Source: a phage. Taken from it: 46,713 nt of DNA. The position numbers were made by a program, and so were the translations under genes. The notes below the pieces were generated by a model that saw only the letters and a program-made list of their open reading frames with translations, was not told where the DNA came from and did not search any database. Of the stretch, positions 2,337-34,825 are shown in pieces (positions within the stretch are counted from its first letter, which is position 1; every line of letters starts with the position of its first letter). The stretch lies in the sequence record PZ379183.1. One strand, 5' to 3'.

Positions 2337-2759
2337 ATGAAATTAAGCAAATCTCAAAGGGAAGAGTTGAAGGGCAAGTTCGGTGGTCGCTGCGCTTATT
2401 GTGGGTGTGAACTACCTGAGAAAGGCTGGCATGCTGACCATGTTGAACCGGTGCTACGTAAATCTGAGGTATGCATGAAGTCAGCGGAGAAAGGAACTTT
2501 CAAGCTGAAGGCGACAGGTGAGTTTAATCGACCACAAGCTGATCGAATGGAAAACCTTTACCCTGCATGTGCTCCATGCAACCTCATGAAAACTTGCTAT
2601 TCCCTTGAAATGTTCAGGGAACAGGTGTCTCTTCAAGTCGCTCGCGGGCGTAAGAGCAGCATGAATTTTCGCACGGCAGAGCGGTTCGGCCTCATCTCCA
2701 TAGTTGAGGATCCAGTTGTTTTCTGGTTTGAGAAGTTTGAGCAAATTAACAAAATCTGA
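2337..2759 (+). CDS. HNH-family endonuclease
   Basis: Cys pairs CAYCGC and CAPCN flanking H-x-D-H-V-E-P and conserved Asn, typical HNH zinc-finger nuclease signature. Confidence 0.6.
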   Translation: MKLSKSQREELKGKFGGRCAYCGCELPEKGWHADHVEPVLRKSEVCMKSAEKGTFKLKATGEFNRPQADRMENLYPACAPCNLMKTCYSLEMFREQVSLQVARGRKSSMNFRTAERFGLISIVEDPVVFWFEKFEQINKI

Positions 2760-3657: not shown

Positions 3658-3841
3658 TAAAGAAATCAATCACAAGCATCGCTACGTTTACGTGTTCACA
3701 TCAAATATTAACGATTTTGACATTAAAGCGCTAAACGACAAGTACCATGAGTCAACAAAACAAAGTCTATTTGTTGGTGAAAGCTGTTCATTCTACGAGT
3801 GCAAAGATTGTGGCAAGATGCTTATAACTGAGGAGTTTTGA
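3650..3841 (+). CDS. hypothetical small protein with C-x-x-C pair
   Basis: Internal ATG of ORF 3626..3841 overlapping upstream stop; CKDCGK motif near C-terminus. Confidence 0.4.
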   Translation: MNNKEINHKHRYVYVFTSNINDFDIKALNDKYHESTKQSLFVGESCSFYECKDCGKMLITEEF

Positions 3842-4038
3842 TGAATAAAATTATTAAGAAAGGCGATGCTATCAAGTGCACAAAGGCGGTATCTGATGAC
3901 TTCATGGATGGATGCGATTACCAGGTCGAAAAGGTATCGAAGACTGGCCACGTATTCTGCTACAGCGATAATGGCGAATTGGTGAGCATTGACTACCCGT
4001 ATGACCAGAATTATGGGAAATTCGAAAGAGTAAGTTGA
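3838..4038 (+). CDS. hypothetical protein (66 aa)
   Basis: ATGA overlap with upstream ORF. Confidence 0.45.
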   Translation: MMNKIIKKGDAIKCTKAVSDDFMDGCDYQVEKVSKTGHVFCYSDNGELVSIDYPYDQNYGKFERVS

Positions 4039-4226
4039 CACATCTAACCCTGACTGGTACATTAACAACTGTAGACAGACGAGGCCACCAAGTGGCAACG
4101 GCGCACGGAGCGCAACACAAAGTCCATAGCTCACTAAGCAGCGTATATGGCGAAATCGGTCGAGAAACTCGACGCTGGAAGCGTAACCAGCAATCCTTCA
4201 ATAGCGCAATCGCTACTCAAGGATTT

Positions 4227-4299
4227 GTTCTGCTGGCGTAACAGGATAACGCAAAGACCTCCTAAGTCTTAGTTACTGGTTCGAGTCCAGTGCGGAACA
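4227..4299 (+). tRNA. tRNA-Arg (anticodon CCU)
   Basis: Manual cloverleaf fold: 7-bp acceptor stem GTTCTGC/GCGGAAC (one G-U), U8, D-stem GCGT/ACGC with GG in D-loop, anticodon stem AAGAC/GTCTT, loop CUCCUAA (U33, anticodon CCU, A37), T-arm ACTGG-TTCGAGT-CCAGT, discriminator A followed by encoded CCA. Confidence 0.85.
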
Positions 4300-4333
4300 C
4301 CAAATTAAGAAACCAATAATCCTGGGGGATTAA

Positions 4334-4546
4334 ATGAAAAAAGTAACAATCATCGTAAAAGATATTGAAAGCGGCACTTCCCAAAAATTCAACGCAACAC
4401 TTGACCGTGAACATAAATGCTTAAAGGGTGTGATTGGCGGGGTTTCAGTTAGCGCGGATATTAAAGGCTATCTCGAGCTTGAAAGAGAAACTCAAAACTA
4501 TAGCAATCAGAGCGGGAAGATAAAAAATGCAGCTCTGGGATGTTAA
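4334..4546 (+). CDS. hypothetical protein (70 aa)
   Basis: ORF with GGGGGATTAAATG RBS directly after the tRNA. Confidence 0.45.
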   Translation: MKKVTIIVKDIESGTSQKFNATLDREHKCLKGVIGGVSVSADIKGYLELERETQNYSNQSGKIKNAALGC

Positions 4547-4715
4547 GCTTTCAATCCGATTAATGGGTCGTAGTTGCAAAAGTTGCACTCAAGAATTTAT
4601 CGCGTCGGTTACTGCTAAGTCCTCAGAGGAAGCAGTAGCGAAAGTTAAGGTAATGTCTGGTGCCGACCCGGATTACCACAAATTCCTAGTAGCTTACGTT
4701 CGTGAGCGAAAGTAA
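4527..4715 (+). CDS. hypothetical protein (62 aa)
   Basis: ORF overlapping the end of the previous one; start uncertain. Confidence 0.3.
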   Translation: MQLWDVKLSIRLMGRSCKSCTQEFIASVTAKSSEEAVAKVKVMSGADPDYHKFLVAYVRERK

Positions 4716-4768: not shown

Positions 4769-4792
4769 GCCCTCTTCTTGAGGGCTTTTTTT
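4769..4792 (+). terminator. rho-independent terminator
   Basis: GCCCTC-TTCTT-GAGGGC hairpin followed by T7 tract. Confidence 0.7.
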
Positions 4793-4839
4793 CGTTTGCT
4801 ATATGATATAATGCATCTCTAAACAAAGGAGGTAACAAA

Positions 4840-5364
4840 ATGAAAGACGAAAACTTCACCAGTCAGGCGCAAGAAAAGGTCCGCTCTGGCAACTTTAAAG
4901 CCATGTACAATAAAAAGTACTCAGACATTACAACGCTAGCCAAAAACCGAAGCATGACACCCGAACAGCTATTTGAATTCGCCGTGAAATACTTCTCATG
5001 GGCTGAGAACCAGGCAATCAAGGCAATCGAGACAGCCAGCTTCCAGGGTGTGGTAAAAGAGAGCCTGGTGCACAAACCACGAGTCTTCACGCTAACCGGA
5101 TTCTGCCTTTACTGCGGTGTCACCCATAGCGCCATCGAGAAATGGAGGAAGTCGGCTGGTTATGATGAGGTGATTGCGTTCATTGATTCCGTGATTCGCG
5201 AGCAGAAATACCAGCTTGCAGCATCTGGCATCATTAACCCTGGCATGATTTCCAAAGAGCTTGGAATCGACAAGCCGCAGGAGATTACCATCAGCAACAA
5301 CTCTTCAGCTAACGACGTCGATACGATGAAGGAAGCGCTGGAGTCTGTGATTAGTAAGCTGTAA
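4840..5364 (+). CDS. terminase small subunit (putative)
   Basis: AAGGAGG RBS; 174-aa ORF immediately upstream of the large terminase gene; assignment by position. Confidence 0.5.
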   Translation: MKDENFTSQAQEKVRSGNFKAMYNKKYSDITTLAKNRSMTPEQLFEFAVKYFSWAENQAIKAIETASFQGVVKESLVHKPRVFTLTGFCLYCGVTHSAIEKWRKSAGYDEVIAFIDSVIREQKYQLAASGIINPGMISKELGIDKPQEITISNNSSANDVDTMKEALESVISKL

Positions 5365-7433: not shown

Positions 7434-8711
7434 ATGGTAAAAGCAGATTCATACGCCACGCAATTTCTTGGTGGCTCCAGTGATGGTAGCGAGATTTACG
7501 GGCACTTTGGCAACACGTATCTTACACCTCCTTTCGCTGATTCACTGTACGCATCAAACTCAATTGTACGCCGCATCGTCGACACCATACCGGAGACAGC
7601 AATCGCCGCAGGTTTCCATATCGATGGTATTGATGACGAAGGTGAATTCTGGTCCAGGTGGGATTACCTGAAGGTTAACGAGTCAATCTCTGACGCATGG
7701 TCATGGGCGAGGTTATTTGGCGGCTCTGCAATTGTGGCTATCGCTAAGGACAATCGTGCGCTAACTAGCCCGGTACGTGAAGGCGCGGAACTTGAATCAC
7801 TTCGCGTTTATGAGCGTAGCCAGGTAAGAGTTCAGACTAAGGAGGAAAACCCTCGCAATGTGCGATTCGGTAAGCCATTAACGTACCGCATCACGCCAGA
7901 AGGTGGCGCCATGTTTTATGATGTGCACTACTCGCGAGTTCACATTATGGATGGCGAGAAGATTCCTAGTTCATTGCGTCGCGGTAATGACGGGTGGGGT
8001 GCTAGCGTTCTGGTTCCTGACCTGCTTGAATCAATCAAGGATTATCAGACGTGTGAGAAACTGGCAACTCAGTTATTGCGCCGCAAGCAGCAGGCGGTGT
8101 GGAAGGCTAAAGGCCTTGCTGAACTGTGTGACGACGCGGAAGGTTTTGGTGCGGCCAGGTTGAGGCTTGCCCAGGTTGATGATAACTCTGGCGTTGGTCG
8201 CGCGATTGGTATCGACGCTGAAGCTGAAGAGTACAGCGTTCTTAACTCGGATATTGGTGGGATTGATGGATTCCTCGATAAGAAGTTCGACAGAATTGTT
8301 GCTCTGAGCGGTATCCATGAAATCATTCTCAAAGGTCGTAACGTTGGCGGGTTATCATCTAGCCAAAACACAGCGCTAGAGACATTCCATAAGTTGATTG
8401 ACCGCAAGCGTAACGAAGAGCTACTTCCAGTTCTTGGGTTCTTAATCCCGTTCGTCACAACCGAGCAAGAATGGTCAGTTGAGTTTAACCCTCTAGCTCA
8501 GGAATCGAAGAAAGACCGCGCTGAAGTACTGAAGAATAACGTTGATTCAATTACTGCTCTTATCACTAACGGCGTGATGGATGCAGACGAAGCACGAGAT
8601 ACCTTGCGCGCATTAGCCCCTGAGGTTAAGATTGGTGAAGGTTCAATTGAGACAGAGGTAACAATCAATGAAACCAGTGAAGACCCGCTGGAAGTACCCG
8701 CAGACAATTGA
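7434..8711 (+). CDS. portal protein
   Basis: ORF track 7407..8711, start moved to ATG after GGAG RBS because 7407 lies in the terminator hairpin; size and position after terminase. Confidence 0.75.
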   Translation: MVKADSYATQFLGGSSDGSEIYGHFGNTYLTPPFADSLYASNSIVRRIVDTIPETAIAAGFHIDGIDDEGEFWSRWDYLKVNESISDAWSWARLFGGSAIVAIAKDNRALTSPVREGAELESLRVYERSQVRVQTKEENPRNVRFGKPLTYRITPEGGAMFYDVHYSRVHIMDGEKIPSSLRRGNDGWGASVLVPDLLESIKDYQTCEKLATQLLRRKQQAVWKAKGLAELCDDAEGFGAARLRLAQVDDNSGVGRAIGIDAEAEEYSVLNSDIGGIDGFLDKKFDRIVALSGIHEIILKGRNVGGLSSSQNTALETFHKLIDRKRNEELLPVLGFLIPFVTTEQEWSVEFNPLAQESKKDRAEVLKNNVDSITALITNGVMDADEARDTLRALAPEVKIGEGSIETEVTINETSEDPLEVPADN

Positions 8712-9396
8712 GAATCAGGTAAACCGCAACCTTAGCGTTGCGGTAACTGAGCTAATATCTGCAATGAAAGAATCAGCTACGCGGCTTAAGATTGACACTG
8801 CCGAGGAGCTAGAGCAGGAAGATAATTATCTCGACGCAATCATAGCAGCGCTTATAGCTTCTGTTGTAGCTACACTTCCGGCAATTGGAGCGTCAATATA
8901 CAGGTATAATTCATCGCAGTTTCTTGTGCTGGCAATCAAGACTGGTGGCGGCTCGGTCCAGTCAGTTATGGACTTGAGACTTAACGGTATAAATGGAGAT
9001 GAAGATTGGTATCAGCCGGATTTAAACCAGTGGCTTTACACATCAAATAAGTCCGTTGAAAAGTTACTCAACAATATCAAGGACGACTTTATTCAGTCTG
9101 CATCAATCATACAGAGTGGTGACTACCTTAAGATTAACGAAAGGTACAAGATTTACCGCAAGAGAACTGCTAATATAGCCTCAGGCATCACGTCCAGTAT
9201 TAACTCTACGTTCATGCGCAGGAGGCTAGAGGATGCTGGTGTTACACATTACATTTGGCACGGCATGCTTGATGAAAGGGAGCGAATGACCCATTTCAAG
9301 AAAGAGGGCCTAAGCTTCAGGTTGGGCGGTAACGATCTCTTCCCTGGTCAGGAATACGGCTGTCGTTGTTGGGCTGTGCCGGATTGGGAGTCATAA
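8668..9396 (+). CDS. head morphogenesis / minor capsid protein (putative)
   Basis: Overlaps portal 3' end in another frame with GAGG RBS; position typical of SPP1 gp7/Mu F-like genes. Confidence 0.5.
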   Translation: MKPVKTRWKYPQTIENQVNRNLSVAVTELISAMKESATRLKIDTAEELEQEDNYLDAIIAALIASVVATLPAIGASIYRYNSSQFLVLAIKTGGGSVQSVMDLRLNGINGDEDWYQPDLNQWLYTSNKSVEKLLNNIKDDFIQSASIIQSGDYLKINERYKIYRKRTANIASGITSSINSTFMRRRLEDAGVTHYIWHGMLDERERMTHFKKEGLSFRLGGNDLFPGQEYGCRCWAVPDWES

Positions 9397-11244: not shown

Positions 11245-12186
11245 ATGGCCATTAAATTTGATGCAGAACAAGCAAAAATCACCGCTCACCTTGAGCAAAT
11301 GGGTGTAGATAAAGCTGATGCTGCTGGTATCTGGACCGTCAAGCAGTTGACCGCCAACCTGGCGCGTGCGTACGAAGCAGAATATCCGGAAAACTCCGTA
11401 GTTAATATCTTCCCAGTAACTAACGAAATCCCGGCCCATGCAAAGTATTTTGAGTACCCTGAGTTTGACGGAACGGCAATCGCACAGATTATCGCTGATT
11501 ACTCTGATGACCTTCCGCTGGTTGATGCGTTCATGACCGAGAAGCAAGGCAAAGTTTTCCGTTTTGGTAACGCGTTCCTGATTTCCACCGACGAAATCAA
11601 AGCTGGCGCAGCAACTGGTCAGTCACTGTCAGCTCGTAAACAGGCTTTGGCTTTTGAAGCTCATGACAACCTGCTCGATAAACTGGTATGGTCTGGCTCT
11701 GCACCGCACGGCATTCCTGGCGTATTCAATGCGCCGAACGTTAACCAGGTTGTTGCTGGTACTTGGAACTCCGCGGCTGCTGCTATGACTGATATCACAG
11801 CGCTTATCGATGCTATCGAAACAGCTACCAATGGTGCTCACACCGCGACTGATATCCTGCTGCCTGCTTCCGCTCGCCGCCTGATGCAAGAACTGGTGCC
11901 GAACACCTCTATCAGCTACGCGCAGTTGTTTGCAACCAATAACTCCGGCATCACTCTGCGTTATCTGCAATTCCTGGATAACTACGACGGTGCTGGTGGC
12001 AAAGCTGCACTGGCATTTGAAAAAAATCCGCTCAACCTGAGTATTGAGATTCCGGAAGTGACGAACGTGCTACCTGGCCAGCCGAAGGATTTGCATTTCA
12101 AGTACCCGGTAACCTCTAAAGCGACGGGCTTGATCATCTATAGGCCGCTAACTGTATCAGTACTGAAGGGCATTACCTACGCCTAA
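11245..12186 (+). CDS. major capsid protein
   Basis: AAGGAATAAACAAGAATG start; 313-aa ORF flanked by a strong promoter and two terminators, typical of the most highly expressed structural gene. Confidence 0.75.
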   Translation: MAIKFDAEQAKITAHLEQMGVDKADAAGIWTVKQLTANLARAYEAEYPENSVVNIFPVTNEIPAHAKYFEYPEFDGTAIAQIIADYSDDLPLVDAFMTEKQGKVFRFGNAFLISTDEIKAGAATGQSLSARKQALAFEAHDNLLDKLVWSGSAPHGIPGVFNAPNVNQVVAGTWNSAAAAMTDITALIDAIETATNGAHTATDILLPASARRLMQELVPNTSISYAQLFATNNSGITLRYLQFLDNYDGAGGKAALAFEKNPLNLSIEIPEVTNVLPGQPKDLHFKYPVTSKATGLIIYRPLTVSVLKGITYA

Positions 12187-16391: not shown

Positions 16392-19373
16392 ATGGCAACT
16401 AACGAAATTGCTGGTATCACGCTAGCCGTCGACGTAGCTCAGGTCGATAAGGGTACGCAATCCTTACAGAAATTCAGGCAAGCAAACGAGCAAGCTGCAA
16501 CAGGCATTAATAGCTTCGTCAACGCCGAACTTGTAGCCAAGACTCAAGCAAGGGACACTGCAAGGCAGCTTGAGGAGCAGCGCAAATCTTTCGCATCACT
16601 TCAGCAAGCCATAGACCCAACCGCTGCTAAATTCCTGAAGTTGCAGAAAGCAGCAACAGATTTGGACAAAGCATTTGAATCCGGGATAGTTCCTGATGAT
16701 GAATTCTTCAGGCTTGGCTCTGTTATTGAAACTCAAATCAATAAGCTAAACAGGTCTAAAGCCGCTCTTAGCGAAGAAGGCAGGGCTGCACTACAGGCAT
16801 CAATAGATAAAGAGAAAGCAACAACAGCAGCGCAAAAGTTCATTCAATCTCTTGAGAACGAGGCGAATGCAGCAAGCCTGACAAGGACTGAACTTCTTCA
16901 GCTTAAGGCTGCTCAGCTAGGAGTTGGTGACCAGGCTGCACCGATTATCGACAGGATTGGAAAGGCTGCCGAGGCATCTGCGGTACAATTGCAGAAGCAA
17001 AGCTCCGCTTTTGTTAAGTCTGGGCTTAGTGCCGGTCAATACAAGCAAGCAATTCGACAGCTTCCAGCGCAGATTACAGATATCGGAACCTCTCTAGCTG
17101 GTGGTATCCCAATCTGGCTAATTGCAATTCAGCAGGGTGGGCAGATTAAGGATAGCTTTGGTGGTATTGCTAACACCGCAAGGTTCGCACTGGCAGCCAT
17201 TAACCCATTAACGGCAGTTGTTGGGACTTTGGGCTTGGCCCTCGGCGCTCTTGGTGTTGCTGCTTATCAGGCTGACAAGAACACTCGCGGACTAGCATCA
17301 ACGATAACATTGGTTGGCAACTCAACTATCACGTCGACAGCGCAGATAAATCAGGTTGTTGATGGAATTGAGAGTTCAACACTAGCCACGCGCGGACTTA
17401 TCCAGGAGATAGCTAACAGCCTGGTAGCAAACGGTAATCTGACTCTTACGCAGATAGATAAGATAACCAAGGCGACAGCACAATGGGCAACTGTAACATC
17501 AACAGACTCGAAAACTATTCTTGGATACTTTGATCAGATTACAAAGGACCCAATTCAAGGTCTGATTGCACTCGATAAGCAGTTCAACTTCCTTCAGTCT
17601 GGGCAATTGAAATACATTGAGAATATCAGGAAGACGGCTGGAGAAACAGAGGCTGTAACCGCAGCTACTGAGCTATTCGCTAACGTTATGGAAAACAGGC
17701 TAGCAGACGTAGCACTAAGCCTTAACCCTCTTGAGAGCGCATGGAATAGCTTCAGGAAGTTTGTAAGTGAGATTTGGGATGATATAAGCAAAAGGACGCT
17801 TGGGGCGCTTAACTTAATAACTGACGTTGTTGCTGGGACTATTGAGCAGATAAGGTCGTTAATAAACTCCGGTGATATCCTATTGGGCGAGTTTGCAATA
17901 GCAGCAACCAAGACACTTCAGTCAATACCTGGACTTGGCGATTTAGGCAATGAAGCAATCGCTGAGCAGCAAAAGATTGTTGATGCAGCTAAGAAGCAAA
18001 ATGAGGAGTTAGCAAAAAGCATAGCTGAGCGAGATGCGAGAATCAGGAAGGGTGAGCTTGGTTATGTCGAGAACAACAATAACACCAACCTTAGCGGCAA
18101 TAATGCATCAACCGATAAGGAGTTTGCAGCAAGGAAGAAGGCTCTTGCCGATGAGTATGATGCGATAAAGAAAGCAAGGAGTGAGAGGAAAAAGGCTGTA
18201 AAAGAAGAAAGTGATTTAACTTTATCTTATGAATCTGGCGTTCTTGCACTTCAGGCTCAGTTAAAGGTCTTACAAGAGCACAGAACGATAAATGATGTAA
18301 TAAGCAATGAAAGAAAGCAGTTATTCCAGGAAGAAGCGAAGTTTGCAATACTTGAACAAAGACAAGCGGATGGTACGCTTACAAAATCACAGGCTAAGCT
18401 ACTTGCGCAGAAGAATATCATTCTTGAACAGGCTAAACAGAAGGCTGAACTTGGTGACCAGATTGTGCTTCAGGAGAGGTCAAACAAGTTACTTGATGAC
18501 AACCTTAAGAAGACAATACAGATTACCAATGAGGCGAAGAATGTTTCACTTGCTGCGGGTCTATCCGAAAGGGAGCGGCAAAGGGCAGGAGAACTTCAGG
18601 CGCTAGAGTCCAATCAGGTAAACAAGGGTGGCTCTGTAAATGATGTTGATTTCCAAAATCTGCTGGAAGCAAGAAAAGAATACTACAGGCAGGAAGATAA
18701 CCTAAGGTCAGACTGGCAAGCTGGTGTAACTTCAACGCTTGCTGACTTAACTGAGAAGTACACTGACTTCAACCAAATTGCTAAGGATTTGACTGTCGCA
18801 GCTTTTGATGGAATTACCGACCAGATTACAAACCTTGTAACCACTGGAGAGACTAATTTCAGGGAGTTCACGGCAAACATACTGAAAATGATTGCGAAAA
18901 TTGCAACTCAGCTACTTTTGGTAAAGGCTATTGAATCTACAATTAAGAGCTTTGGTGGTGACACTGGAGCAGGTAGTGCCTTTGAGTCAATAAAGTCAGC
19001 AATTGGCTTTGCTGGTGGCGGCTACACTGGAGACGGCGGGAAGTATCAACCTGCTGGAACTGTGCACCGCGGTGAGTTTGTATTCACAAAAGAAGCTACA
19101 AGCAGGATTGGCGTTAAGAACCTGTACAAGCTAATGCGAGGTTATGCAAATGGCGGCGCTGTTGGTGGGCCCTCTGGCTATGCTAATGGTGGAGTTGTTG
19201 GTGGCACGAATGTCAGTGTTGGCGGCGTGACGGTTAACGTAAACTCTGGAATTGGTGGCGGAAATGATGCTAAGGCGATAGAATCTGGAGTCAAGGTTAT
19301 CGTTGCTGAGGAAATCAGCAAGTCATTCCAGCAGGGCGGAAGAGCCTTTGCTTATCTGAGGGGTTACAACTAA
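16392..19373 (+). CDS. tail tape measure protein
   Basis: 993-aa ORF, Ala/Gln/Leu-rich helical repeats with Gly-rich C-terminal region; position after chaperones. Confidence 0.85.
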   Translation: MATNEIAGITLAVDVAQVDKGTQSLQKFRQANEQAATGINSFVNAELVAKTQARDTARQLEEQRKSFASLQQAIDPTAAKFLKLQKAATDLDKAFESGIVPDDEFFRLGSVIETQINKLNRSKAALSEEGRAALQASIDKEKATTAAQKFIQSLENEANAASLTRTELLQLKAAQLGVGDQAAPIIDRIGKAAEASAVQLQKQSSAFVKSGLSAGQYKQAIRQLPAQITDIGTSLAGGIPIWLIAIQQGGQIKDSFGGIANTARFALAAINPLTAVVGTLGLALGALGVAAYQADKNTRGLASTITLVGNSTITSTAQINQVVDGIESSTLATRGLIQEIANSLVANGNLTLTQIDKITKATAQWATVTSTDSKTILGYFDQITKDPIQGLIALDKQFNFLQSGQLKYIENIRKTAGETEAVTAATELFANVMENRLADVALSLNPLESAWNSFRKFVSEIWDDISKRTLGALNLITDVVAGTIEQIRSLINSGDILLGEFAIAATKTLQSIPGLGDLGNEAIAEQQKIVDAAKKQNEELAKSIAERDARIRKGELGYVENNNNTNLSGNNASTDKEFAARKKALADEYDAIKKARSERKKAVKEESDLTLSYESGVLALQAQLKVLQEHRTINDVISNERKQLFQEEAKFAILEQRQADGTLTKSQAKLLAQKNIILEQAKQKAELGDQIVLQERSNKLLDDNLKKTIQITNEAKNVSLAAGLSERERQRAGELQALESNQVNKGGSVNDVDFQNLLEARKEYYRQEDNLRSDWQAGVTSTLADLTEKYTDFNQIAKDLTVAAFDGITDQITNLVTTGETNFREFTANILKMIAKIATQLLLVKAIESTIKSFGGDTGAGSAFESIKSAIGFAGGGYTGDGGKYQPAGTVHRGEFVFTKEATSRIGVKNLYKLMRGYANGGAVGGPSGYANGGVVGGTNVSVGGVTVNVNSGIGGGNDAKAIESGVKVIVAEEISKSFQQGGRAFAYLRGYN

Positions 19374-21917: not shown

Positions 21918-24900
21918 ATGGCACAAATGGTCAAAACAAATGCGGAGCTATGTGATATGGCGGAAGAAATTAAGATTTATGGAAGTAAGGGCGGACAGCC
22001 AAAGCAGCACCAACCTGTAGAGCAGCCTGATAACCTGATATCCGTAAACAAGGTTAAGGTTTTGCTAGCTGTTTCTGATGGTGAGGTTGATAGCTCATTC
22101 TCCCTAAAGGACCTTTACCTTGCTGACGTTCCTGTACAGAACCAGAATGGCACATACAACTACGAGGGTGTAACGGCAGAGTTTCGCCCTGGCACACAGA
22201 GTCAGGATTACATTGCCGGGCTAGAGGGTGCTAACTCGGAAGTGCAAGTGAACAGGGAGATTAAAAACTCAACTCCTTACATCATTGCTGTTAATAACAC
22301 CCAGCTATCAGCGATTAGGGTTAAGCTGTTTTGGCCTCGTCTGATTAATCAGGAAAGTAACGGAGATCTTAACGGTACCACTTGCGAGTATGCGATTGAC
22401 CTGTCCGTTGATGGCGCTACATACACTGAGTACACGCGCGGAGTAGCTAATGGCAAGACAACTAGCGGGTACGACAGAAGTATCAGGGTTAACCTTCCTG
22501 CTGAGTTCTCGAGTGCGTTGGTGAGGGTTCGTAAGATCACGGCAGATTCAGAAAGTTCGACGCTGGTTAACAATATGCAAATTACGACCTATCAGGAAGT
22601 AATTGATGCGAAATTCCGCTACCCACTTACAGCGCTGGTTTACGTTGAGTTCAGTTCTGACCTCTTCCCTAACGGAATCCCGACGATTTCAATCAAGAAG
22701 AAGTGGAAGTTGATTCGCGTTCCAACTAACTACAACCCAGAGACAAGGACTTACAGCGGAACCTGGAACGGCACCTTTAAGATGGCGTATTCCAATAACC
22801 CGGCGTGGGTTCTTTACGACTTGGTGACGAATCAGCGTTACGGACTTGACCAGCGAGAGCTTGGCATTACTATTGATAAGTGGGGTCTGTATGAGGCGGC
22901 GCAATTCTGTGACCAGATGGTTCCAGATGGTAAGGGTGGAGTTGAGCCGCGCTACCTGTGTGATGTTGTCATTCAGCAGAAAGTTGAAGCATATCAGGTA
23001 ATCCGTGATATTTGCTCTATCTTCCGTGGGCTGACATTCTATGACGGCGAGCAGATAGGGATTGTTGTCGATAAGCCGCGTCAACCATCGTACGTATTCA
23101 CCAATGACAACGTTGTTGATGGATTGTTCAACCGTACATTTGGTAGCGATAAGTCACTTTACACGGTTGCCAACGTTCAGTTTGATGACGTTGAAAACTC
23201 ATACCAACAGGATGTTGAGCCAGTATTCGAGTTAGAGGCAACAAGGCGTTTTGGTTACAACCCGGTCGACCTTACAGCTATTGGATGTACTCGCAGGAGT
23301 GAGGCAAACCGCCGCGGGCGCTGGTTATTAAAGACGAACATTCGCAGCGAGACTATTAGTTTCACTACTGGTCTGGAAGGTATGATTCCAATGATTGGTG
23401 AGGTTATTGCAGTTAATGACCAGGCATGGTCTAGCAACTACACCCTTAACCTTTCTGGTCGTATCGAGTCAGTAAGTGGGTTGCAAGTTTTTGTGCCATT
23501 TAAGATTGATGCTACTGCTGGCGACAGGATTCTAATAAACAAGCCTGATGGAATGCCGGAGTACAGGACCATTGCATCTGTATCTGAAGATGGTATGACG
23601 CTGCAACTTAATACAGCGTTTAGCTTTACTCCTCAGCCTGACACAGTATTTGCGATTGATAAGGAAAATCTTGCTCTTCAGCAATATGTTGTGACCGGTA
23701 TTCAAAAAGCAGACAGCGATGGAGATGATGCGTTTGGTTACACGATTACCGCAGTTGAGTACGACCCGAACAAATACGACGAGATTGATTACGGCGTAAA
23801 CATTCAGGACAGGCCAACTTCAATCGTGGAGCCAGATACATTACTGGCACCCGAGAATGTTCAGGTTAGCAGTTACAGTAAGGTTGTTCAGGGTTTATCA
23901 GTTGAGACAATGGTAATCACGTGGGACAAGGTTCAGTACGCGAAAACCTACACGGTACAGTGGCGCAAGGAGAACGGAAACTGGATTAACGTGCCGCGCA
24001 CAGCAAGCACAGAGGTTGATATTGAAGGTATCTATGCCGGAATTTACCAGGTTCGCGTAAGGGCCGTTTCTGATACTGAAAACGTATCCGCATGGTCTGA
24101 CATTGTTTCAGTAAGCCTCACAGGCAAGATTGGGACCCCTTCTTCACCTACAGTAATCACCGCTTCAGATGATGAAATATTCGGCATTAGGGTTAAGTGG
24201 GGATTTCCTGAAAACTCAGCCGATACGTCATACACTGAATTGCAGCAAGTAGCCGACAATGGTGATGGTACTTATACACCAGAGAATGCTAGCCTTCTGA
24301 CTCTGGTGCCTTACCCGAGTTACGAGTACTGGCATACTACACTTCCTGCTGGAAAGGTCATCTGGTACAGGGCGCGACTGATTGACAAGATTGGTAACGT
24401 CTCACCATGGACTGATTTTGTAAGGGGTATGGCAAGCGATGATGTGTCGTCAATCATTGGTGATATTAAGGTTGATATAGAAAACTCAGATGGGTTCAAG
24501 TATCTCCAACAGAATGCCATTGAGTCAAACGGAGCTATTCAGGCGCAAGCGGAATCAATAATTGAGAACGCCCTGGCTAATGATGGTGACGTGCGTAGAA
24601 TGACGAAGGAAAACGGCAAGAGGAAGGCCGAATTTGTTCAGGCTGTGAATCTTATCGCCGATGAAGAAAGGGCTCGCGTAGAGGCTCTGACGCAGCTTAA
24701 GGCGCAGATTGATGATGAGATTGTAGCTTCATTGACAAGGATTGATACGGCGCTAGCGGAAGAGACGCAAGCAAGGACCACTGCGGACACTGCTTTATCT
24801 GCAAGGCTAGGTGATAATGAGGCTGCGTTAAATGAGAAGTTGGACACTTACGTTACTGCCGATTCAATTGGTGCTCAGTACGGGATTAAACTTGGCCTCA

Positions 24901-25343
24901 AATACAATGGCGTTGAGTACAGTTCTGGCATGAGTATGGAGCTAACTGGTTCTGATGGCAATGTTCGTAGTCAGGTCATCTTTGATGCTAACAGGTTAGC
25001 AATCAGTAACGGCATTAGCTCTGGATCCGGTCAGTGGTCATTGCCTTTCGTAGTTGAAGGTAATCAGGTATTCATTCAAAGCGCAGTGATTCAGGATGGT
25101 TCAATCACTAACGCGAAGATTGGTAACCGGATTCAATCTAATAACTACGTGGCTGGTTCTCAGGGTTGGGCCATTGATAAGTCAGGCAGTGCGGAACTTA
25201 ACAATGCAACTGTAAGGGGTAGTCTGTACGCAAGTAACGGCAACTTTGCGTTTAACGGAACCAACAACACTGTTCAGATTAACAATAATGGAATTACAGT
25301 TAATTTACCGAATGGTGGAAGGGTTGTAGTTGGAGTGTGGTAA
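21918..25343 (+). CDS. tail tip / central fibre protein (lambda gpJ-like host specificity protein)
   Basis: 1141-aa ORF at the end of the tail module; length and position as for J-family proteins. Confidence 0.8.
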   Translation: MAQMVKTNAELCDMAEEIKIYGSKGGQPKQHQPVEQPDNLISVNKVKVLLAVSDGEVDSSFSLKDLYLADVPVQNQNGTYNYEGVTAEFRPGTQSQDYIAGLEGANSEVQVNREIKNSTPYIIAVNNTQLSAIRVKLFWPRLINQESNGDLNGTTCEYAIDLSVDGATYTEYTRGVANGKTTSGYDRSIRVNLPAEFSSALVRVRKITADSESSTLVNNMQITTYQEVIDAKFRYPLTALVYVEFSSDLFPNGIPTISIKKKWKLIRVPTNYNPETRTYSGTWNGTFKMAYSNNPAWVLYDLVTNQRYGLDQRELGITIDKWGLYEAAQFCDQMVPDGKGGVEPRYLCDVVIQQKVEAYQVIRDICSIFRGLTFYDGEQIGIVVDKPRQPSYVFTNDNVVDGLFNRTFGSDKSLYTVANVQFDDVENSYQQDVEPVFELEATRRFGYNPVDLTAIGCTRRSEANRRGRWLLKTNIRSETISFTTGLEGMIPMIGEVIAVNDQAWSSNYTLNLSGRIESVSGLQVFVPFKIDATAGDRILINKPDGMPEYRTIASVSEDGMTLQLNTAFSFTPQPDTVFAIDKENLALQQYVVTGIQKADSDGDDAFGYTITAVEYDPNKYDEIDYGVNIQDRPTSIVEPDTLLAPENVQVSSYSKVVQGLSVETMVITWDKVQYAKTYTVQWRKENGNWINVPRTASTEVDIEGIYAGIYQVRVRAVSDTENVSAWSDIVSVSLTGKIGTPSSPTVITASDDEIFGIRVKWGFPENSADTSYTELQQVADNGDGTYTPENASLLTLVPYPSYEYWHTTLPAGKVIWYRARLIDKIGNVSPWTDFVRGMASDDVSSIIGDIKVDIENSDGFKYLQQNAIESNGAIQAQAESIIENALANDGDVRRMTKENGKRKAEFVQAVNLIADEERARVEALTQLKAQIDDEIVASLTRIDTALAEETQARTTADTALSARLGDNEAALNEKLDTYVTADSIGAQYGIKLGLKYNGVEYSSGMSMELTGSDGNVRSQVIFDANRLAISNGISSGSGQWSLPFVVEGNQVFIQSAVIQDGSITNAKIGNRIQSNNYVAGSQGWAIDKSGSAELNNATVRGSLYASNGNFAFNGTNNTVQINNNGITVNLPNGGRVVVGVW

Positions 25344-30260: not shown

Positions 30261-30285
30261 AAAGCCCCTTTCGGGGCTTTTTTTT
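30261..30285. terminator. bidirectional rho-independent terminator
   Basis: AAAGCCCC-TTTC-GGGGCTTT hairpin flanked by A-tract upstream and T8 downstream, between convergent SSB and tail fibre genes. Confidence 0.8.
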
Positions 30286-32815
30286 ATGCAAGAGAAACTC
30301 TTGAGTTTGCAAATATCAAGGCGTCCCTTTGATTATCAAATTTTACAACAAAATAATCAGCAAGGCTTAATACCATACCAGTTAATCCATTGAGGTTAAT
30401 GTTAAGGTTTGCAACGCCAGAAACCGAAGCCTTACCAACGCCAAATGTATGAACCCACTTACCAGCTTCTGTGAATACAGTTCCTAATGATGCGCTACCA
30501 AAAATGTTTATAATACCATCAGCACCGCCTTGAATCCTGTTTGCAGAAATACCCCAAGCATACCATTTGCCGGAAGTTATATTAAAGCCACCATTTATCA
30601 ATTCGTACTGAGCCGCACCAGCCAATTCGTAGTATCCAGATGATTGCGAGTGTATACCCCTTGTATCAGAACCTTCACTTGCCGACCCTGTTCCACCAAA
30701 GTTGTTCCCACCAGTACCAAAAGGCCTCCTGACTAAAACAGTTCCGGAATCGGGATTAAAAACTCGACCCTTAGTAACATATCCTCTAACAGATAGGTTT
30801 GAAGTGCCAGTTATCTTGGCTGTCTGTGATACCAGCGACTCAACTATAACGTTTGATGTTGAAGATCCATTCAGGTATGCATCCTTAGCAAAAATAATAC
30901 TGTTCGAATCAAGAGAGAAACTTTGGTGCCCATCAGCGTTATCAAACCTGCACCCATAAGTTACAAGGTTTGAATTTGATAACTCAATGTTATTAATATA
31001 AGAATGCTCAGCAAAGAAAACGGACGTATCGATGAGCTTCAAAACCCTTGGGAGTTCAGCTCCCTCACCTACGTTAATTGCCCCACCAGTTGCTATCGCT
31101 TCAAACCATACGTTAGACAATCCGCAAGGTGATGTTGGGCAATCTCCAGGTTTATTCTTTAACCTTATACCGCCGCCAGCAGAGGCCTCCATTATTGAAT
31201 CCCTAATCCACCACCCACCAATTCCTCCAGCACCAGGGTTCGTTGCGCTACTTGTGCTTGTCGCATCTAGCATTACTGAATATTGAGAGATTGTATCTGA
31301 GTGGTATCCGTATAAAGTGTCCGCTCCTATATGCATTTTGTCATGAGCTTTTGCTCTATACCCGTAATTCGCATTTCTAACACTTACGTTTCTGTAGGTA
31401 TTTCCAATGTTGCCAGCGTTTTTACGTATACCAACATCAATGTCGCTGAAGTACAGCCTATCCATCACAATCCTGCCAGCATAAGGGTCATTCGGGAATT
31501 GAAAGCCGTTATTACCTTGTATTGCAGTACCTGTAAACTGCAAATCCGATAAATGCTTTTGCCTCCAGTGAGGAACCGATAGCGTTGAGGTGAGTCCGGT
31601 TTCAAAAGGTTTAACACTTATTACGGTATTATATCCAGAGCCTGATATGTTCCTGCCAGCAAAGGAGTAGTTATTACTCTCATAAGTTCCCGGACTTATA
31701 ACTACCGACCCGCCATCGCCAGCGGCTTTTATTGCTGAAGATATTGAGCCGCTATAGCTTGATGTGCTTTTTGAATCTGTATTTAAAATTGATGACACCT
31801 CACCCTTTGAGTAAACATCAAGGTTGGTTCTTGCCACGGACTTATCTGCAATGTCTGAAAGATTCAATGATTTTTGAAACGTCTCGGATTTTGAATAAAC
31901 ATCAATCAAATCCCTAACCCTTGATGAGCTTGCTCCTCCACTTATACCTCCTGATGGAATTGATAAAATCTCCCTTGTATAAAACGTTCTTACTGAGTTT
32001 GACACTGAGTATCTAATAGATAAGTTATAGTAGTTTGCATTTGATGTTGTTGCTGATGATAAAAGCAACTCTCCAGTTCCTGCTGTAACAATCTTGCACT
32101 CAATTACATAATCAAGACTAGCACCGGCACTTGATATAAGGTCATTTACACTAGAAGGAGTGTTTACCATTGCTGACTTTGACACTAAAACTTTTGAGCC
32201 GTTTTTAAATGCGTAAGTTTGCCAATCAAATGAGGTAGCTCTAATTGCTACTGAGTTTGCTATATTGTAAGATGCAAGCGTTGCTAATGTTCCGGCGTCA
32301 CCAGCATTATTAATTGCGCTAATAGTAGCATCGCGTGCCTCTGTCGTAGCGTCTCTTGCTGAGGCGGCTGCACTCGCACTTTCAGCGGCAGCGATCTGAC
32401 TAGCTAGCGCCTCAGCAGCCCCAGTGGTTGATTGGGTTGCAAGCTGCTCGAAGCGAGGCCAATCGAAAGTATCTTGCCCGATAAATTGCAGTAGACTTTC
32501 AATAGAAGTCTCTTTTGACTGGTAGTAACGCAATGTTTCCGCAACATCCTGCGCCAACCCCTGAACAGTAATTCCATCATGAGCAAGAATTGCGTAACCA
32601 GTACCAGCGGGAACAGTTTCAGAACTTGGATTATAAACATTAACCTGAGTATCGCTGATGATTTCAGAGATGGTGTAAATTTTCAGAGGGCTGGTTTTGA
32701 AAATGATAGTAGCACCTACACGAATCAGTGTAAGAGGTGCTTTCCATGTAGTACCTACGCCAGTAACCTCGCCATTTGAGGCTAGTGATGCTGTTCCTAA
32801 GTCATAAATTGCCAT
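30284..32815 (-). CDS. tail fibre / tailspike protein
   Basis: 843-aa ORF; Ala-rich coiled N-terminal segment then long Ser/Gly/Asn/Thr-rich region consistent with beta-helix fibre; located apart from the J-like gene on the opposite strand. Confidence 0.6.
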   Translation of the reverse strand: MAIYDLGTASLASNGEVTGVGTTWKAPLTLIRVGATIIFKTSPLKIYTISEIISDTQVNVYNPSSETVPAGTGYAILAHDGITVQGLAQDVAETLRYYQSKETSIESLLQFIGQDTFDWPRFEQLATQSTTGAAEALASQIAAAESASAAASARDATTEARDATISAINNAGDAGTLATLASYNIANSVAIRATSFDWQTYAFKNGSKVLVSKSAMVNTPSSVNDLISSAGASLDYVIECKIVTAGTGELLLSSATTSNANYYNLSIRYSVSNSVRTFYTREILSIPSGGISGGASSSRVRDLIDVYSKSETFQKSLNLSDIADKSVARTNLDVYSKGEVSSILNTDSKSTSSYSGSISSAIKAAGDGGSVVISPGTYESNNYSFAGRNISGSGYNTVISVKPFETGLTSTLSVPHWRQKHLSDLQFTGTAIQGNNGFQFPNDPYAGRIVMDRLYFSDIDVGIRKNAGNIGNTYRNVSVRNANYGYRAKAHDKMHIGADTLYGYHSDTISQYSVMLDATSTSSATNPGAGGIGGWWIRDSIMEASAGGGIRLKNKPGDCPTSPCGLSNVWFEAIATGGAINVGEGAELPRVLKLIDTSVFFAEHSYINNIELSNSNLVTYGCRFDNADGHQSFSLDSNSIIFAKDAYLNGSSTSNVIVESLVSQTAKITGTSNLSVRGYVTKGRVFNPDSGTVLVRRPFGTGGNNFGGTGSASEGSDTRGIHSQSSGYYELAGAAQYELINGGFNITSGKWYAWGISANRIQGGADGIINIFGSASLGTVFTEAGKWVHTFGVGKASVSGVANLNINLNGLTGMVLSLADYFVVKFDNQRDALIFANSRVSLA

Positions 32816-32900: not shown

Positions 32901-33824
32901 TTAGTTTAGCAAGTCGTTTGCTTTGTACACTTTCTTTCGTATGCCTGTTTTAAATGACTCACCGTCATTAGGAACTACAACATCAACACCCCTATCGTCA
33001 GCAACAGCGAGTATATCGCTATCAGAATCACGGCAAGCAATTCTGAACTTCCTTGACTTGTCGCGGTGGATAACCATCTCCATATTGTAACAGGAGAAAG
33101 CAACAAACACTTCGCGCCCACCAGTAGCAAGGTGAACACGTATGCCATCAATATAATTGTCAACAACATAAGTATAACTATCATCCAGCTTAGAACCAAT
33201 AACGGAAACAGAATCACGAGTGTAATCACCAGCAAGGAACTTAACATTTGAATCCTCATCAATAAACATTACGTTACAGAACTCATCACTAAGCCCATCT
33301 TCATAAACCATCGAACAAGGGATTGCGTGAATCATTGAACAATTTTTAGCTATACCAACATCAAAACCAAACTCGTCATAAATACCCTCGTATGTCGTGA
33401 GTGGACTAGATTCAACTCGCTGAGTCCTCTCCATGACCTCAAGAACTTTCTTGTGGTCTACTTGAGCGCAAATTTTATAACGCTGCGTTCTTGATGCTTG
33501 CTTGTTTGCTTTAACTATAACCTCAATTGGTATTAAGTTCAGCCAGTCACCAAGCAAATTTACTGAATCAGCGAAGGACAATCCAGTGCACTTCATGACC
33601 CATCCTATACCGGAGTCACTTCCGCATTTCGAACAAACTGCCGCGCCATTTCCTTTTTCACTGCCTATTTCGTCGGTAAATCTGAATCTGTCAGTGCCAA
33701 AGCAGTATGGGCATGGTCCGTGCTTCTTACTTAGGTGTCTATCATTCCAACCAAGTTCCTTTGCATAAAATGATTTCCACAATCCGGCCATCTTAGGTAT
33801 AACTTCATTCTTATCGTAATTCAT
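32901..33824 (-). CDS. DNA primase (zinc-finger primase, putative)
   Basis: N-terminal zinc ribbon C-P-Y-C...C-S-K-C followed by acidic catalytic-like region; upstream of helicase in the replication block. Confidence 0.65.
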   Translation of the reverse strand: MNYDKNEVIPKMAGLWKSFYAKELGWNDRHLSKKHGPCPYCFGTDRFRFTDEIGSEKGNGAAVCSKCGSDSGIGWVMKCTGLSFADSVNLLGDWLNLIPIEVIVKANKQASRTQRYKICAQVDHKKVLEVMERTQRVESSPLTTYEGIYDEFGFDVGIAKNCSMIHAIPCSMVYEDGLSDEFCNVMFIDEDSNVKFLAGDYTRDSVSVIGSKLDDSYTYVVDNYIDGIRVHLATGGREVFVAFSCYNMEMVIHRDKSRKFRIACRDSDSDILAVADDRGVDVVVPNDGESFKTGIRKKVYKANDLLN

Positions 33825-34300
33825 TTGCTTAACCCGTGATTTTCGTGAAAGTTGTATTTTCCCTCTGCTTCAATTCTTACTTTATACGCCCGCTCTGGAG
33901 TATCGAAGTTCCCAAGGTGTAGCTGCTTGCCGTCAACCTTGATGTGAGCCTTAAATTTTCCGTGATTTAGCTTTGCCACTCCACAATAACCAGTTGTTGA
34001 TAAAACGCTAAGCTTGCAATTTCTTGAGTTACCTTGATTTGTTGTTACTCTTAGGTTTTCTATTCTGTTATCTAATTTGTTATGGTTTATATGATCAATG
34101 TAGTCGCCATTTTGAAGTTCTCCATTAAACATCTCCCACACAACTCTATGTACATAAGTCCTAAAGCCATTAACAGACACTTTGTAATAGCCAGATGTAG
34201 ATAGTGAGTTGCACTCATCGCCAACCTTAACACGTCTTGCAGTGCTAATCTTCCAATGCAATTTGCCATCTACATAGTAAAAATAATCATGCCAGTTCAT
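33821..34300 (-). CDS. HNH homing endonuclease
   Basis: YVHRVVW...IDHINHNKLDNRIENLR signature; paralogue of 14169..14651. Confidence 0.75.
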   Translation of the reverse strand: MNWHDYFYYVDGKLHWKISTARRVKVGDECNSLSTSGYYKVSVNGFRTYVHRVVWEMFNGELQNGDYIDHINHNKLDNRIENLRVTTNQGNSRNCKLSVLSTTGYCGVAKLNHGKFKAHIKVDGKQLHLGNFDTPERAYKVRIEAEGKYNFHENHGLSK

Positions 34301-34351: not shown

Positions 34352-34825
34352 TTACTCTTTAGCTTTTCGTGCGGCTTCGTTGGCAATCTTATTCTTGCGC
34401 CACGGTCGACAAGGTGGCTTTGTTGCTAGTTCAGCCTCAGTAACCACGCGTAGCATGTGGCGCTTCTTGCATCTAAGCGTCAGAGGCTTACCGTTACCGT
34501 CAAATTGCAGGTCTGGTCGGCAGAAAGTAGCTCGGAACCCTCCCTTATTTCTCTTGTACGCATTATGTGCTCGCTGGGCGCCTCGAGCCGAAATCATACC
34601 GCGATCAAACCATTGTTCTACAGTCTGGTGAGATACATTTAACTGCTTGGCGATATTGGCCTTCGTGCCGTAGAAGTCAAGAACCATCTCCAGACGAGCT
34701 CTTAGCCCAGCCTTTACTTCATCTTTCAATACGTAGTAGCCTGACGGTCGTTTGCGCTGTTTCTTGTCTTGCGTGCGGATGGTTCCGTTATTGCCGTTGA
34801 TAGTTCGCTTGTCAATTTCACACAT
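34352..34825 (-). CDS. Cro/YdaS-like HTH DNA-binding protein (putative regulator)
   Basis: GTKANIAKQLNVSHQTVEQWF helix-turn-helix segment, basic C-terminal region; first gene of a minus-strand operon from a divergent control region. Confidence 0.4.
   Translation of the reverse strand: MCEIDKRTINGNNGTIRTQDKKQRKRPSGYYVLKDEVKAGLRARLEMVLDFYGTKANIAKQLNVSHQTVEQWFDRGMISARGAQRAHNAYKRNKGGFRATFCRPDLQFDGNGKPLTLRCKKRHMLRVVTEAELATKPPCRPWRKNKIANEAARKAKE

Follow-up and report, generated by a model that had tools for sequence, protein, structure and literature searches.

A tRNA-Arg(CCU) gene of a T1-like Escherichia coli phage likely supplements the decoding of AGG codons

Results

The window, i.e. the whole 46,713-base stretch of DNA analysed here, represents a T1-like Escherichia coli phage of the family Drexlerviridae, with the Escherichia phages AN_ECEAS (Braunvirinae), IMM-001 and ES as nearest records. 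PHROGs assignments describe a virulent gene set, comprising terminase subunits, portal, head protease, major head and tail proteins, tape measure and tail fibres, along with Erf/exonuclease, primase, helicases, Dam methylase and endolysin. The sole tRNA detected in the window by ARAGORN is a tRNA-Arg with the anticodon cct at 4227-4302 on the plus strand, consisting of 73 nt and an encoded CCA end. The anticodon (CCT, 4261-4263), identified by ARAGORN as well as by reading of the bases, is located within the loop CTCCTAA (4259-4265) and reads AGG.

The gene folds into a canonical cloverleaf at 4227-4299, as put forward in the original prediction, and the fold is accepted by ARAGORN and by the Rfam tRNA model. 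The latter, RF00005, matches 4227-4299 (+) over the full model (positions 1-71/71) with 58.9 bits compared to a gathering score of 29 (E = 2.6e-10), and no non-canonical pairs are flagged. In the ARAGORN drawing, the arms comprise 7/4/5/5 bp with a single wobble, U5-G68, and the variable loop is 4 nt long. Base reading places U8 at 4234, A14 at 4240, G18 G19 at 4244-4245, A20 at 4246, U33 at 4260, C35 at 4262, U36 at 4263, A37 at 4264, the T-loop TTCGAGT at 4280-4286, the discriminator A73 at 4299 and CCA at 4300-4302, so that every invariant listed originally is found; the T-loop UUCGA and A58 are evident from the bases and the drawing alike.

A homolog set was assembled from TerL-anchored IMG/VR loci and 11 GenBank records, and 16 homologous or analogous tRNAs were aligned. 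RNAalifold recovers the cloverleaf from this alignment, and compensatory two-sided changes preserve pairing in 15 of the 20 predicted pairs. Support for the cloverleaf is far beyond chance. G18 G19 A20, C35, U36, A37, A38 and the CCA end are invariant across the 16 sequences, while position 73 is either A or G; judging from this alignment, the fold and the identity nucleotides are under purifying selection. The identity set of the E. coli arginyl-tRNA synthetase (ArgRS) comprises A20, C35, U36 or G36, and A or G at position 73. All of these are present in the phage tRNA (A20, C35, U36 and A73), which should consequently be charged by the host enzyme.

The tRNA is only 63% identical to argW of E. 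coli K-12, and a blastn search against 5,426 complete E. coli genomes returned no match, so that it is neither a host-derived copy nor a recent capture from the host. Genes of the argW type are frequent integration sites of temperate phages, which then carry a partial copy of the tRNA, and E. coli argW itself is such a site, with the prophage CPS-53 starting inside it. A remnant of such an integration event would be a 3' fragment, but the phage gene is of full length and lacks a counterpart in the E. coli genomes, no integrase is present among the scanned ORFs of the window (PHROGs), and the gene set is of the virulent T1-like type, which together exclude this origin for practical purposes.

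Across phages, the 76-nt tRNA is matched, on the 5' side of the terminase genes, in 114 records with 79-100% identity, nearly all of them Drexlerviridae of Escherichia or Shigella, and a tRNA-Arg is annotated in many of these (e.g. Rogue1, AKS96, AHP24, Sf12, phiEB49, CEB_EC3a and SU57). The two copies with 100% identity are unannotated, with nothing at this position in AN_ECEAS and a 'hypothetical protein' over the tRNA in IMM-001, and the annotation is also missing from several classic records, including Rtp and Jk06; the tRNA gene should be called in these genomes. Niu et al. 2014 reported '1 arginyl-tRNA' for Rogue1-like phages (PMC4070988), one tRNA is listed in papers on UDF157lw and BECP10, and the UCU homolog of SU57 was suggested to facilitate AGA decoding (PMC7718038). 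Hence, both the tRNA gene and the rare-codon idea are already known: members of this tRNA family have been annotated and described in print, and the same rationale was put forward earlier for the UCU homolog. Codon-usage analysis is absent from the papers listing the tRNA (Rogue1-like phages, UDF157lw and BECP10), and for AGG usage in relation to the tRNA in Drexlerviridae, we found nothing in the literature beyond the one-sentence AGA remark for SU57.

The surroundings of the tRNA suggest a short transcription unit. A σ70-type promoter-like site at 4035-4063 (+), consisting of TTGACA, a 17-nt spacer with a TG extension, and TACATT, scores 10/12 plus TG in a consensus scan that overall shows no enrichment over shuffles in the window, and represents the predicted start of the tRNA transcript. 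All related clades have a promoter-like site in the corresponding position, with TTGCAT/TAATAT in UCU-type Braunvirinae, TTGACG/TAGTAT in Rogunavirus and TTGACC/TAGTAT in T1. On the 3' side of the tRNA, the predicted unit contains two small plus-strand ORFs from the ORF list, encoding 70 aa (4334-4546, phrog_16862) and 62 aa (4527-4715, phrog_2919, E = 5e-28), of which the latter is kept directly downstream of the tRNA in most relatives and is annotated there as a DUF3667-domain protein. The predicted end of the unit is an intrinsic-terminator-like hairpin, GCCCTC-TTCTT-GAGGGC followed by T7 (4769-4792, +; terminator scan), just upstream of the small terminase gene TerS (4840-5364, +; phrog_606). 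The position originally assigned to the tRNA, at the end of an early plus-strand block, thereby holds only approximately: the two small ORFs and the intrinsic terminator separate it from TerS. The order of promoter and leader, tRNA, small ORF, TerS and TerL is conserved in Rogue1, AN_ECEAS, CY1, Rtp, ECH1, JeanPiccard and others.

Between the promoter-like site and the tRNA, folding and covariation reveal a non-coding structured leader (4070-4226, +) with the 5' motif UGUAGACAGACGAGG and six plus-strand hairpins, A (4084-4096), B (4101-4113), C (about 4122-4151), D (4159-4174), E (4174-4191, GCUGG-AAGCGUAA-CCAGC) and F (4192-4225). Its minimum free energy is -48.4 kcal/mol (z = -2.8 versus shuffles), and conserved copies are found in about 96 phage records, nearly all without an annotated feature at this position. 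Compensatory changes are detected in hairpins A, C, D and E, with the stem of A present as GCCAC/GUGGC, CCAUC/GAUGG or CUAGC/GCUAG, and the U-G wobbles favour an RNA of the plus strand. Two ORFs, 4035-4241 (TTG start) and 4147-4272, overlap both the leader and the tRNA gene, with hypothetical proteins annotated at this place in two GenBank records; the leader was nevertheless judged non-coding on the basis of indels of 0-110 nt among relatives and of substitutions concentrated as compensatory stem pairs. A pac site is also disfavoured. In the literature, pac is placed at the left genome end of T1-like phages, whereas the T1 copy of the leader is found about 7.6 kb into the genome, and the covarying stems together with the U-G wobbles point to an RNA.

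A covariance model of the 5' part of the leader yields weak matches in about 17 tRNA-less T1-type loci, and these are always syntenic, on the plus strand and 1.1-1.4 kb upstream of TerL. In T1, the promoter (TTGACC-17-TAGTAT) is followed by CGUAGACAGACGAGG with a hairpin, and then by a terminal hairpin, GCCGC-AGACCCGUAA-GCGGC, with the ribosome binding site (RBS) and ATG of a small ORF directly after it. Of 40 loci, 34 contain exactly one hairpin of this kind, with a stem of 5 bp and CGUAA at the end of the loop, in the 2 kb preceding TerL; nine stem variants are seen, and the hairpin always lies just before the tRNA(s) or an RBS. T1 and the other tRNA-less relatives share the promoter-leader layout in a more diverged form, positioned directly before the small ORF. 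Given this shared layout, the tRNA seems to have been inserted into a structured 5' UTR common to the family.

Features common to the leaders across Drexlerviridae subfamilies are a length of about 90-160 nt, the 5' motif (C/U)GUAGAC...GAGG, covarying stems and the terminal 5-bp hairpin. An Rfam search of the leader at permissive thresholds returned only the tRNA and sub-threshold chance matches (sar with E = 0.52, TarA, a CRISPR repeat and SNORD88), and we found no description of the Drexlerviridae leader in the literature. With its conservation across the family and the repeated insertion of tRNAs after its terminal hairpin, the leader could, as a tentative proposal about which we remain doubtful, be an undescribed cis-acting regulatory RNA. 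Its role could be nut- or put-like processive antitermination, which is a candidate because an intrinsic terminator is located between the leader and TerS, or the leader could act as a platform for processing or stability or be bound by a phage protein; it might also drive expression and maturation of the tRNA. If a regulatory role proves true, the leader may be of more interest than the tRNA.

Codon usage was determined for the phage using our own longest-ORF calls of at least 100 aa rather than a curated annotation. In these 11,209 codons, AGG is present at 13.6 per 1000 and is the commonest Arg codon with 28.8% of Arg, compared to 14.6% for AGA and just 2.5% for CGG. The corresponding values for 42 annotated genes of E. 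coli K-12 (14,748 codons) are 0.7 per 1000 and 1.3% of Arg for AGG and 2.3% of Arg for AGA. AGG is therefore rare in the host, as originally stated, and about 20 times as frequent in the phage. Even higher usage is observed in the packaging, head and tail genes (4840-25343, +; 5,667 codons), with AGG at 17.1 per 1000 and 36.7% of Arg and AGA at 11.0% of Arg, and from the codon counts and PHROGs identities these genes are the main predicted clients of the tRNA. Individual AGG counts are 26 of 40 Arg codons in the tape measure, 22/52 in tail fibre J, 16/32 in a second tail fibre and 9/31 in TerL, and seven tandem AGR-AGR pairs are found in the phage, three of them AGG-AGG.

AGG is not uniformly preferred, since it accounts for only 1 of 7 Arg codons in the major head protein, the most abundant virion protein, and for none of 29 in the helicase encoded at 42567-44165 on the minus strand; its share in small ORFs, the calls of which are uncertain, is 15% of Arg. 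This uneven distribution between the morphogenesis block, the small ORFs and the helicase is compatible with a timing function, in which the AGG-rich late genes are translated efficiently only after the phage tRNA has accumulated and the tRNA gates late synthesis, as is the location of the tRNA immediately upstream of the morphogenesis genes with a σ70-like promoter of its own. However, the low AGG content of the major head protein concerns the very product needed most late in infection, and mosaic gene ancestry explains the unevenness equally well, rendering a gating function unlikely.

Related phages provide a comparison of loci with different tRNA content. An IMG/VR pattern scan for the CCU-loop and T-arm gave 120 mostly unrelated phage contigs, and TerL-anchored loci were used instead, 33 of which were analysed using ARAGORN and codon counts, then limited to TerL and about 10 kb downstream. 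AGG constitutes 20.5-33.7% of Arg (AGA 9.5-14.5%) in loci with tRNA-Arg(CCU) (n=7), 7-14% (AGA 18-25%) in those with tRNA-Arg(UCU) at the equivalent site (n=3), and 4.0-12.9% (AGA 2.7-17.6%) in tRNA-less loci including T1 (n=20). The AGG ranges of loci with a CCU tRNA and of tRNA-less loci are entirely separate (Mann-Whitney p = 6e-5, a value that overstates independence because the loci are phylogenetically related). At 18 conserved Arg columns of TerL, AGG is used in 33% (CCU), 11% (UCU) and 3% (no tRNA) of cases. In a separate comparison of the three groups, AGG/(AGG+AGA) amounts to 0.70 (CCU), 0.32 (UCU) and 0.42 (no tRNA). The fractions of AAG, CAG, GGG and TTG as well as GC3 show no difference between the CCU and UCU groups, so that the high AGG content is not explained by a general preference for G-ending codons or by a GC3 bias. 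The codon shift is specific to AGG.

The CCU and UCU tRNAs are 78-82% identical, share one locus and differ by compensatory stem changes, and from these sequence features they are clearly homologous. The association with the anticodon is visible among close relatives, as the TerL of one UCU-type locus (L125) is 90% identical in protein to that of the window, with AGG at 6.9% as opposed to 29.3% in the window. Another locus, L154, belongs to a separate clade and contains a different tRNA-Arg(CCU), 66% identical to that of the window and situated inside a six-tRNA cluster, and its TerL is 57% identical to that of the window and 76-78% to those of tRNA-less relatives. AGG reaches 33% in L154 versus 9-10% in these relatives, and judging from the sequence divergence, L154 is an independent replicate of the link between CCU and AGG. 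Overall, the comparison is a correlational one and comprises perhaps two or three independent contrasts, namely CCU versus UCU in Braunvirinae, Rogunavirinae versus T1-type phages, and L154 versus its relatives.

The site between the leader hairpin and the downstream ORF behaves as a slot, which is empty in some phages, is occupied by one tRNA in others (with four or more body types represented), and accommodates two in L130, where a tRNA-Trp is added, and six in L154. Moreover, the tRNA body in the window is of the Rogunavirus type (97% identical), while leader and TerL are Braunvirinae-like. Both observations would fit a tRNA with no current role, hitch-hiking as a mobile cassette at a recombination-prone site, or alternatively serving a non-decoding purpose as an RNase P processing or punctuation signal. 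Yet, a processing signal would not require all four body types to retain the ArgRS identity nucleotides without variation and to keep their AGR anticodon intact, nor does it predict codon usage that tracks the anticodon, and we regard a tRNA without a decoding role as very unlikely.

Discussion

Based on the gene structure and the comparisons among relatives, we propose that the gene encodes a functional elongator tRNA-Arg(CCU), which raises the supply of AGG decoding for the AGG-rich phage genes; we assign this reading a probability of about 80%. The idea that the phage supplements the decoding capacity of its host, raised in the original prediction, is thus supported at the sequence level, where codon usage tracks both the presence and the anticodon of the tRNA in relatives.

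In the proposed mechanism, host RNA polymerase would transcribe the tRNA from the σ70-type promoter about 165 nt upstream, as part of a transcript that also contains the structured leader and the two small ORFs. The tRNA would then be freed by host RNase P and 3' trimming enzymes, with the CCA end already encoded, and be charged by the host arginyl-tRNA synthetase. In this manner, the phage tRNA would boost an AGG decoder that is very scarce in E. coli, permitting translation of the phage genes with AGG as the commonest Arg codon, especially the tail and packaging genes. We infer transcription from the 4035-4063 site, processing by RNase P and at the 3' end, arginylation, and a fitness benefit for the phage.

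A different function to consider is counter-defence, in which the phage tRNA would stand in for host tRNA-Arg lost to cleavage or depletion by a tRNase of the host or a competitor (e.g. an anticodon nuclease, of the colicin D type or otherwise), instead of serving codon supply in unstressed cells. Colicin D cleaves all Arg isoacceptors, whereas only the rarest isoacceptor type is present on the phage, and codon usage that follows tRNA presence and anticodon (CCU with AGG, UCU with AGA) is not predicted by such a function. The hypothesis has been published for phage tRNAs generally, naming colicin D, which targets tRNA-Arg, among the E. coli enzymes (PMC10264068), and the divergence of the tRNA body from argW could change how well it is recognised by nucleases reading the stems. 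However, under the hypothesis of van den Berg et al. 2023 (PMC10264068), the anticodon loop of the phage tRNA should differ from that of the host isoacceptor at the site of cleavage or close to it. This signature is absent here, as E. coli argW has the same loop, CUCCUAA, and the same neighbouring G39. Taken together, we find counter-defence quite unlikely as an explanation for this gene.

Within the preferred reading of AGG supply, causality may run in either direction, and the tRNA may simply relax selection against AGG. That this may be its main effect is suggested by the low AGG content of the major head protein and the helicase, and by the tRNA-less relatives on the same host. Nor does a Drexlerviridae lifestyle strictly depend on the tRNA, since tRNA-less T1-type phages use the same host with 4-13% AGG.

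Biologically, there is little new in kind, as the carriage of a single rare-codon tRNA by virulent coliphages is a textbook concept. The value of the locus rather lies in the natural series of CCU, UCU and no tRNA in close relatives infecting E. coli K-12, with AGG and AGA usage following, which amounts to a very clean natural experiment and offers a simple test system for the long-debated question of why phages carry tRNAs.

The closest known counterparts are the tRNAs of the Rogue1-like phages (Rogunavirus: Rogue1, AHP24, AHS24, AHP42, AKS96, Sf12 and phiEB49), which share the CCU anticodon and the body type with 92-97% identity, are likewise located upstream of small ORFs and terminase genes, and are accompanied by similarly AGG-rich usage. 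The window differs from Rogunavirus in its Braunvirinae-type leader and in a TerL that is about 90% identical to UCU-type Braunvirinae compared to 78% to Rogunavirus; the same combination of a Rogue-type tRNA in a Braunvirinae-like context is found in CY1/Christensenvirus. The homologous tRNA-Arg(UCU) of Braunvirinae (Rtp, CEB_EC3a, SU57, JeanPiccard and Veterinaerplatzvirus) has the locus, promoter and leader in common with the window tRNA, as well as the proposed rare-codon logic. In contrast, it is 77-78 nt long with extra bases in the D-loop and variable loop, and its phages favour AGA over AGG.

Compared to the host, the phage tRNA shares with E. coli argW the loop CUCCUAA, G18 G19 A20, the 4-nt variable loop, A73 and the encoded CCA, and argW would read AGG too and be charged by the same synthetase, but the two differ in all four stems. 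T4 and T5 are virulent coliphages with codon-compensating tRNAs. In the laboratory, argU/argW are supplied to express AGG/AGA-rich genes in E. coli (PMC4245098). The shared principle of these systems and the phage tRNA described here is the addition of a scarce isoacceptor for codons that are rare in E. coli. Unlike T4 and T5, the window contains a single tRNA in a genome of about 47 kb instead of a cluster, and the sister lineages with an alternative anticodon or no tRNA make the codon link unusually clean here.

The tRNA locus and its structured leader

Between a σ70-like promoter and the tRNA-Arg(CCU) gene (window 4227-4302, + strand) lies a conserved, non-coding structured leader (4070-4226, + strand), the hairpins of which covary. 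No Rfam family matched this leader, and in the approximately 96 phage records that hold it, the leader itself hardly ever carries an annotation. Counterparts were located at 7623-7733 in T1, as well as at 8590-8766 and 8708-8815 in L125 and L132, respectively, two of the TerL-anchored relative loci compared with the window. In relatives without a tRNA at this position, including T1, the leader is syntenic, more diverged, and stops directly at the ribosome-binding site of a small ORF. Of 40 loci, 34 each contained a single copy of the leader's terminal hairpin, which has a variable 5-bp stem and CGUAA at the loop end.

The cargo of the locus varies among Drexlerviridae, the CCU tRNA being one type. 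A tRNA-Arg with the UCU anticodon is present at L125-L127 and L159-L168, and UCU genes at the locus fall into at least three body types (the Rtp, ECH1 and T145P1/BEK3 types). L130 carries a tRNA-Trp and tRNA-Arg pair (8633-8787), and L154 six tRNAs (8322-8969). In the window, a tRNA body of Rogunavirus type is combined with a leader and TerL that are Braunvirinae-like, which suggests that the tRNA cassette has been exchanged by recombination.

Campylobacter phage A110b (MG065688), Pseudomonas phage PsgS01F (PP134917) and 14 'Campylobacter' records closely match the coliphage family of the window, tRNA and leader included. Records with these labels are probably T1-like contaminants or bear wrong host labels.

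Annotation and codon use

The tRNA is present yet unannotated in PP944860 (AN_ECEAS), MF630922 (IMM-001), NC_007603/AM156909 (Rtp), MN158208 (BEK6), MT682706 (FP), MN158207 (BEK3), OQ357823 (CY1), NC_007291 (Jk06), KC579452, NC_042046 and KJ668713. A 'hypothetical protein' CDS is drawn across it in IMM-001, DTL and BEK6. Mechanical ORFs also overlap the tRNA or leader in the window, at 4147-4272 (+), 4035-4241 (+) and 3793-4134 (-), and these are probably not genes.

The AGG share of arginine codons differs strongly from gene to gene, ranging from 0/29 in one helicase (42567-44165, -), 0/18 in a predicted transcriptional regulator (34352-34825, -) and 1/7 in the major head protein (11245-12186, +) to 22/52 in tail fibre J (21918-25343, +), 16/32 in a second tail fibre (30284-32815, -) and 26/40 in the tape measure (16392-19373, +). 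This unevenness could stem from the timing or the level of expression, or from mosaic ancestry.

Neighbouring signals and comparison with related phages

Downstream of the tRNA, a promoter-like site (TTGAGG-18-TATGAT, 4778-4807, +) lies a short way ahead of the small terminase gene TerS, where it coincides in part with the terminator-like hairpin at 4769-4792. The morphogenesis genes may be transcribed anew from this site. An Rfam match to sar RNA at 4581-4636 (-), on the strand opposite the small ORF at 4527-4715, falls below threshold (19.3 bits, gathering score 43; E = 0.52) and most likely reflects chance. For T1-like phages, 21-nt intergenic repeats are described in the TLS paper (PMC11447400). 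ORFs resembling HNH or endonuclease VII-type homing endonucleases are found at 2337-2759 (+) and 33821-34300 (-); AN_ECEAS, the tRNA copy of which is 100% identical, has an additional homing endonuclease between TerS and TerL, unlike the window.
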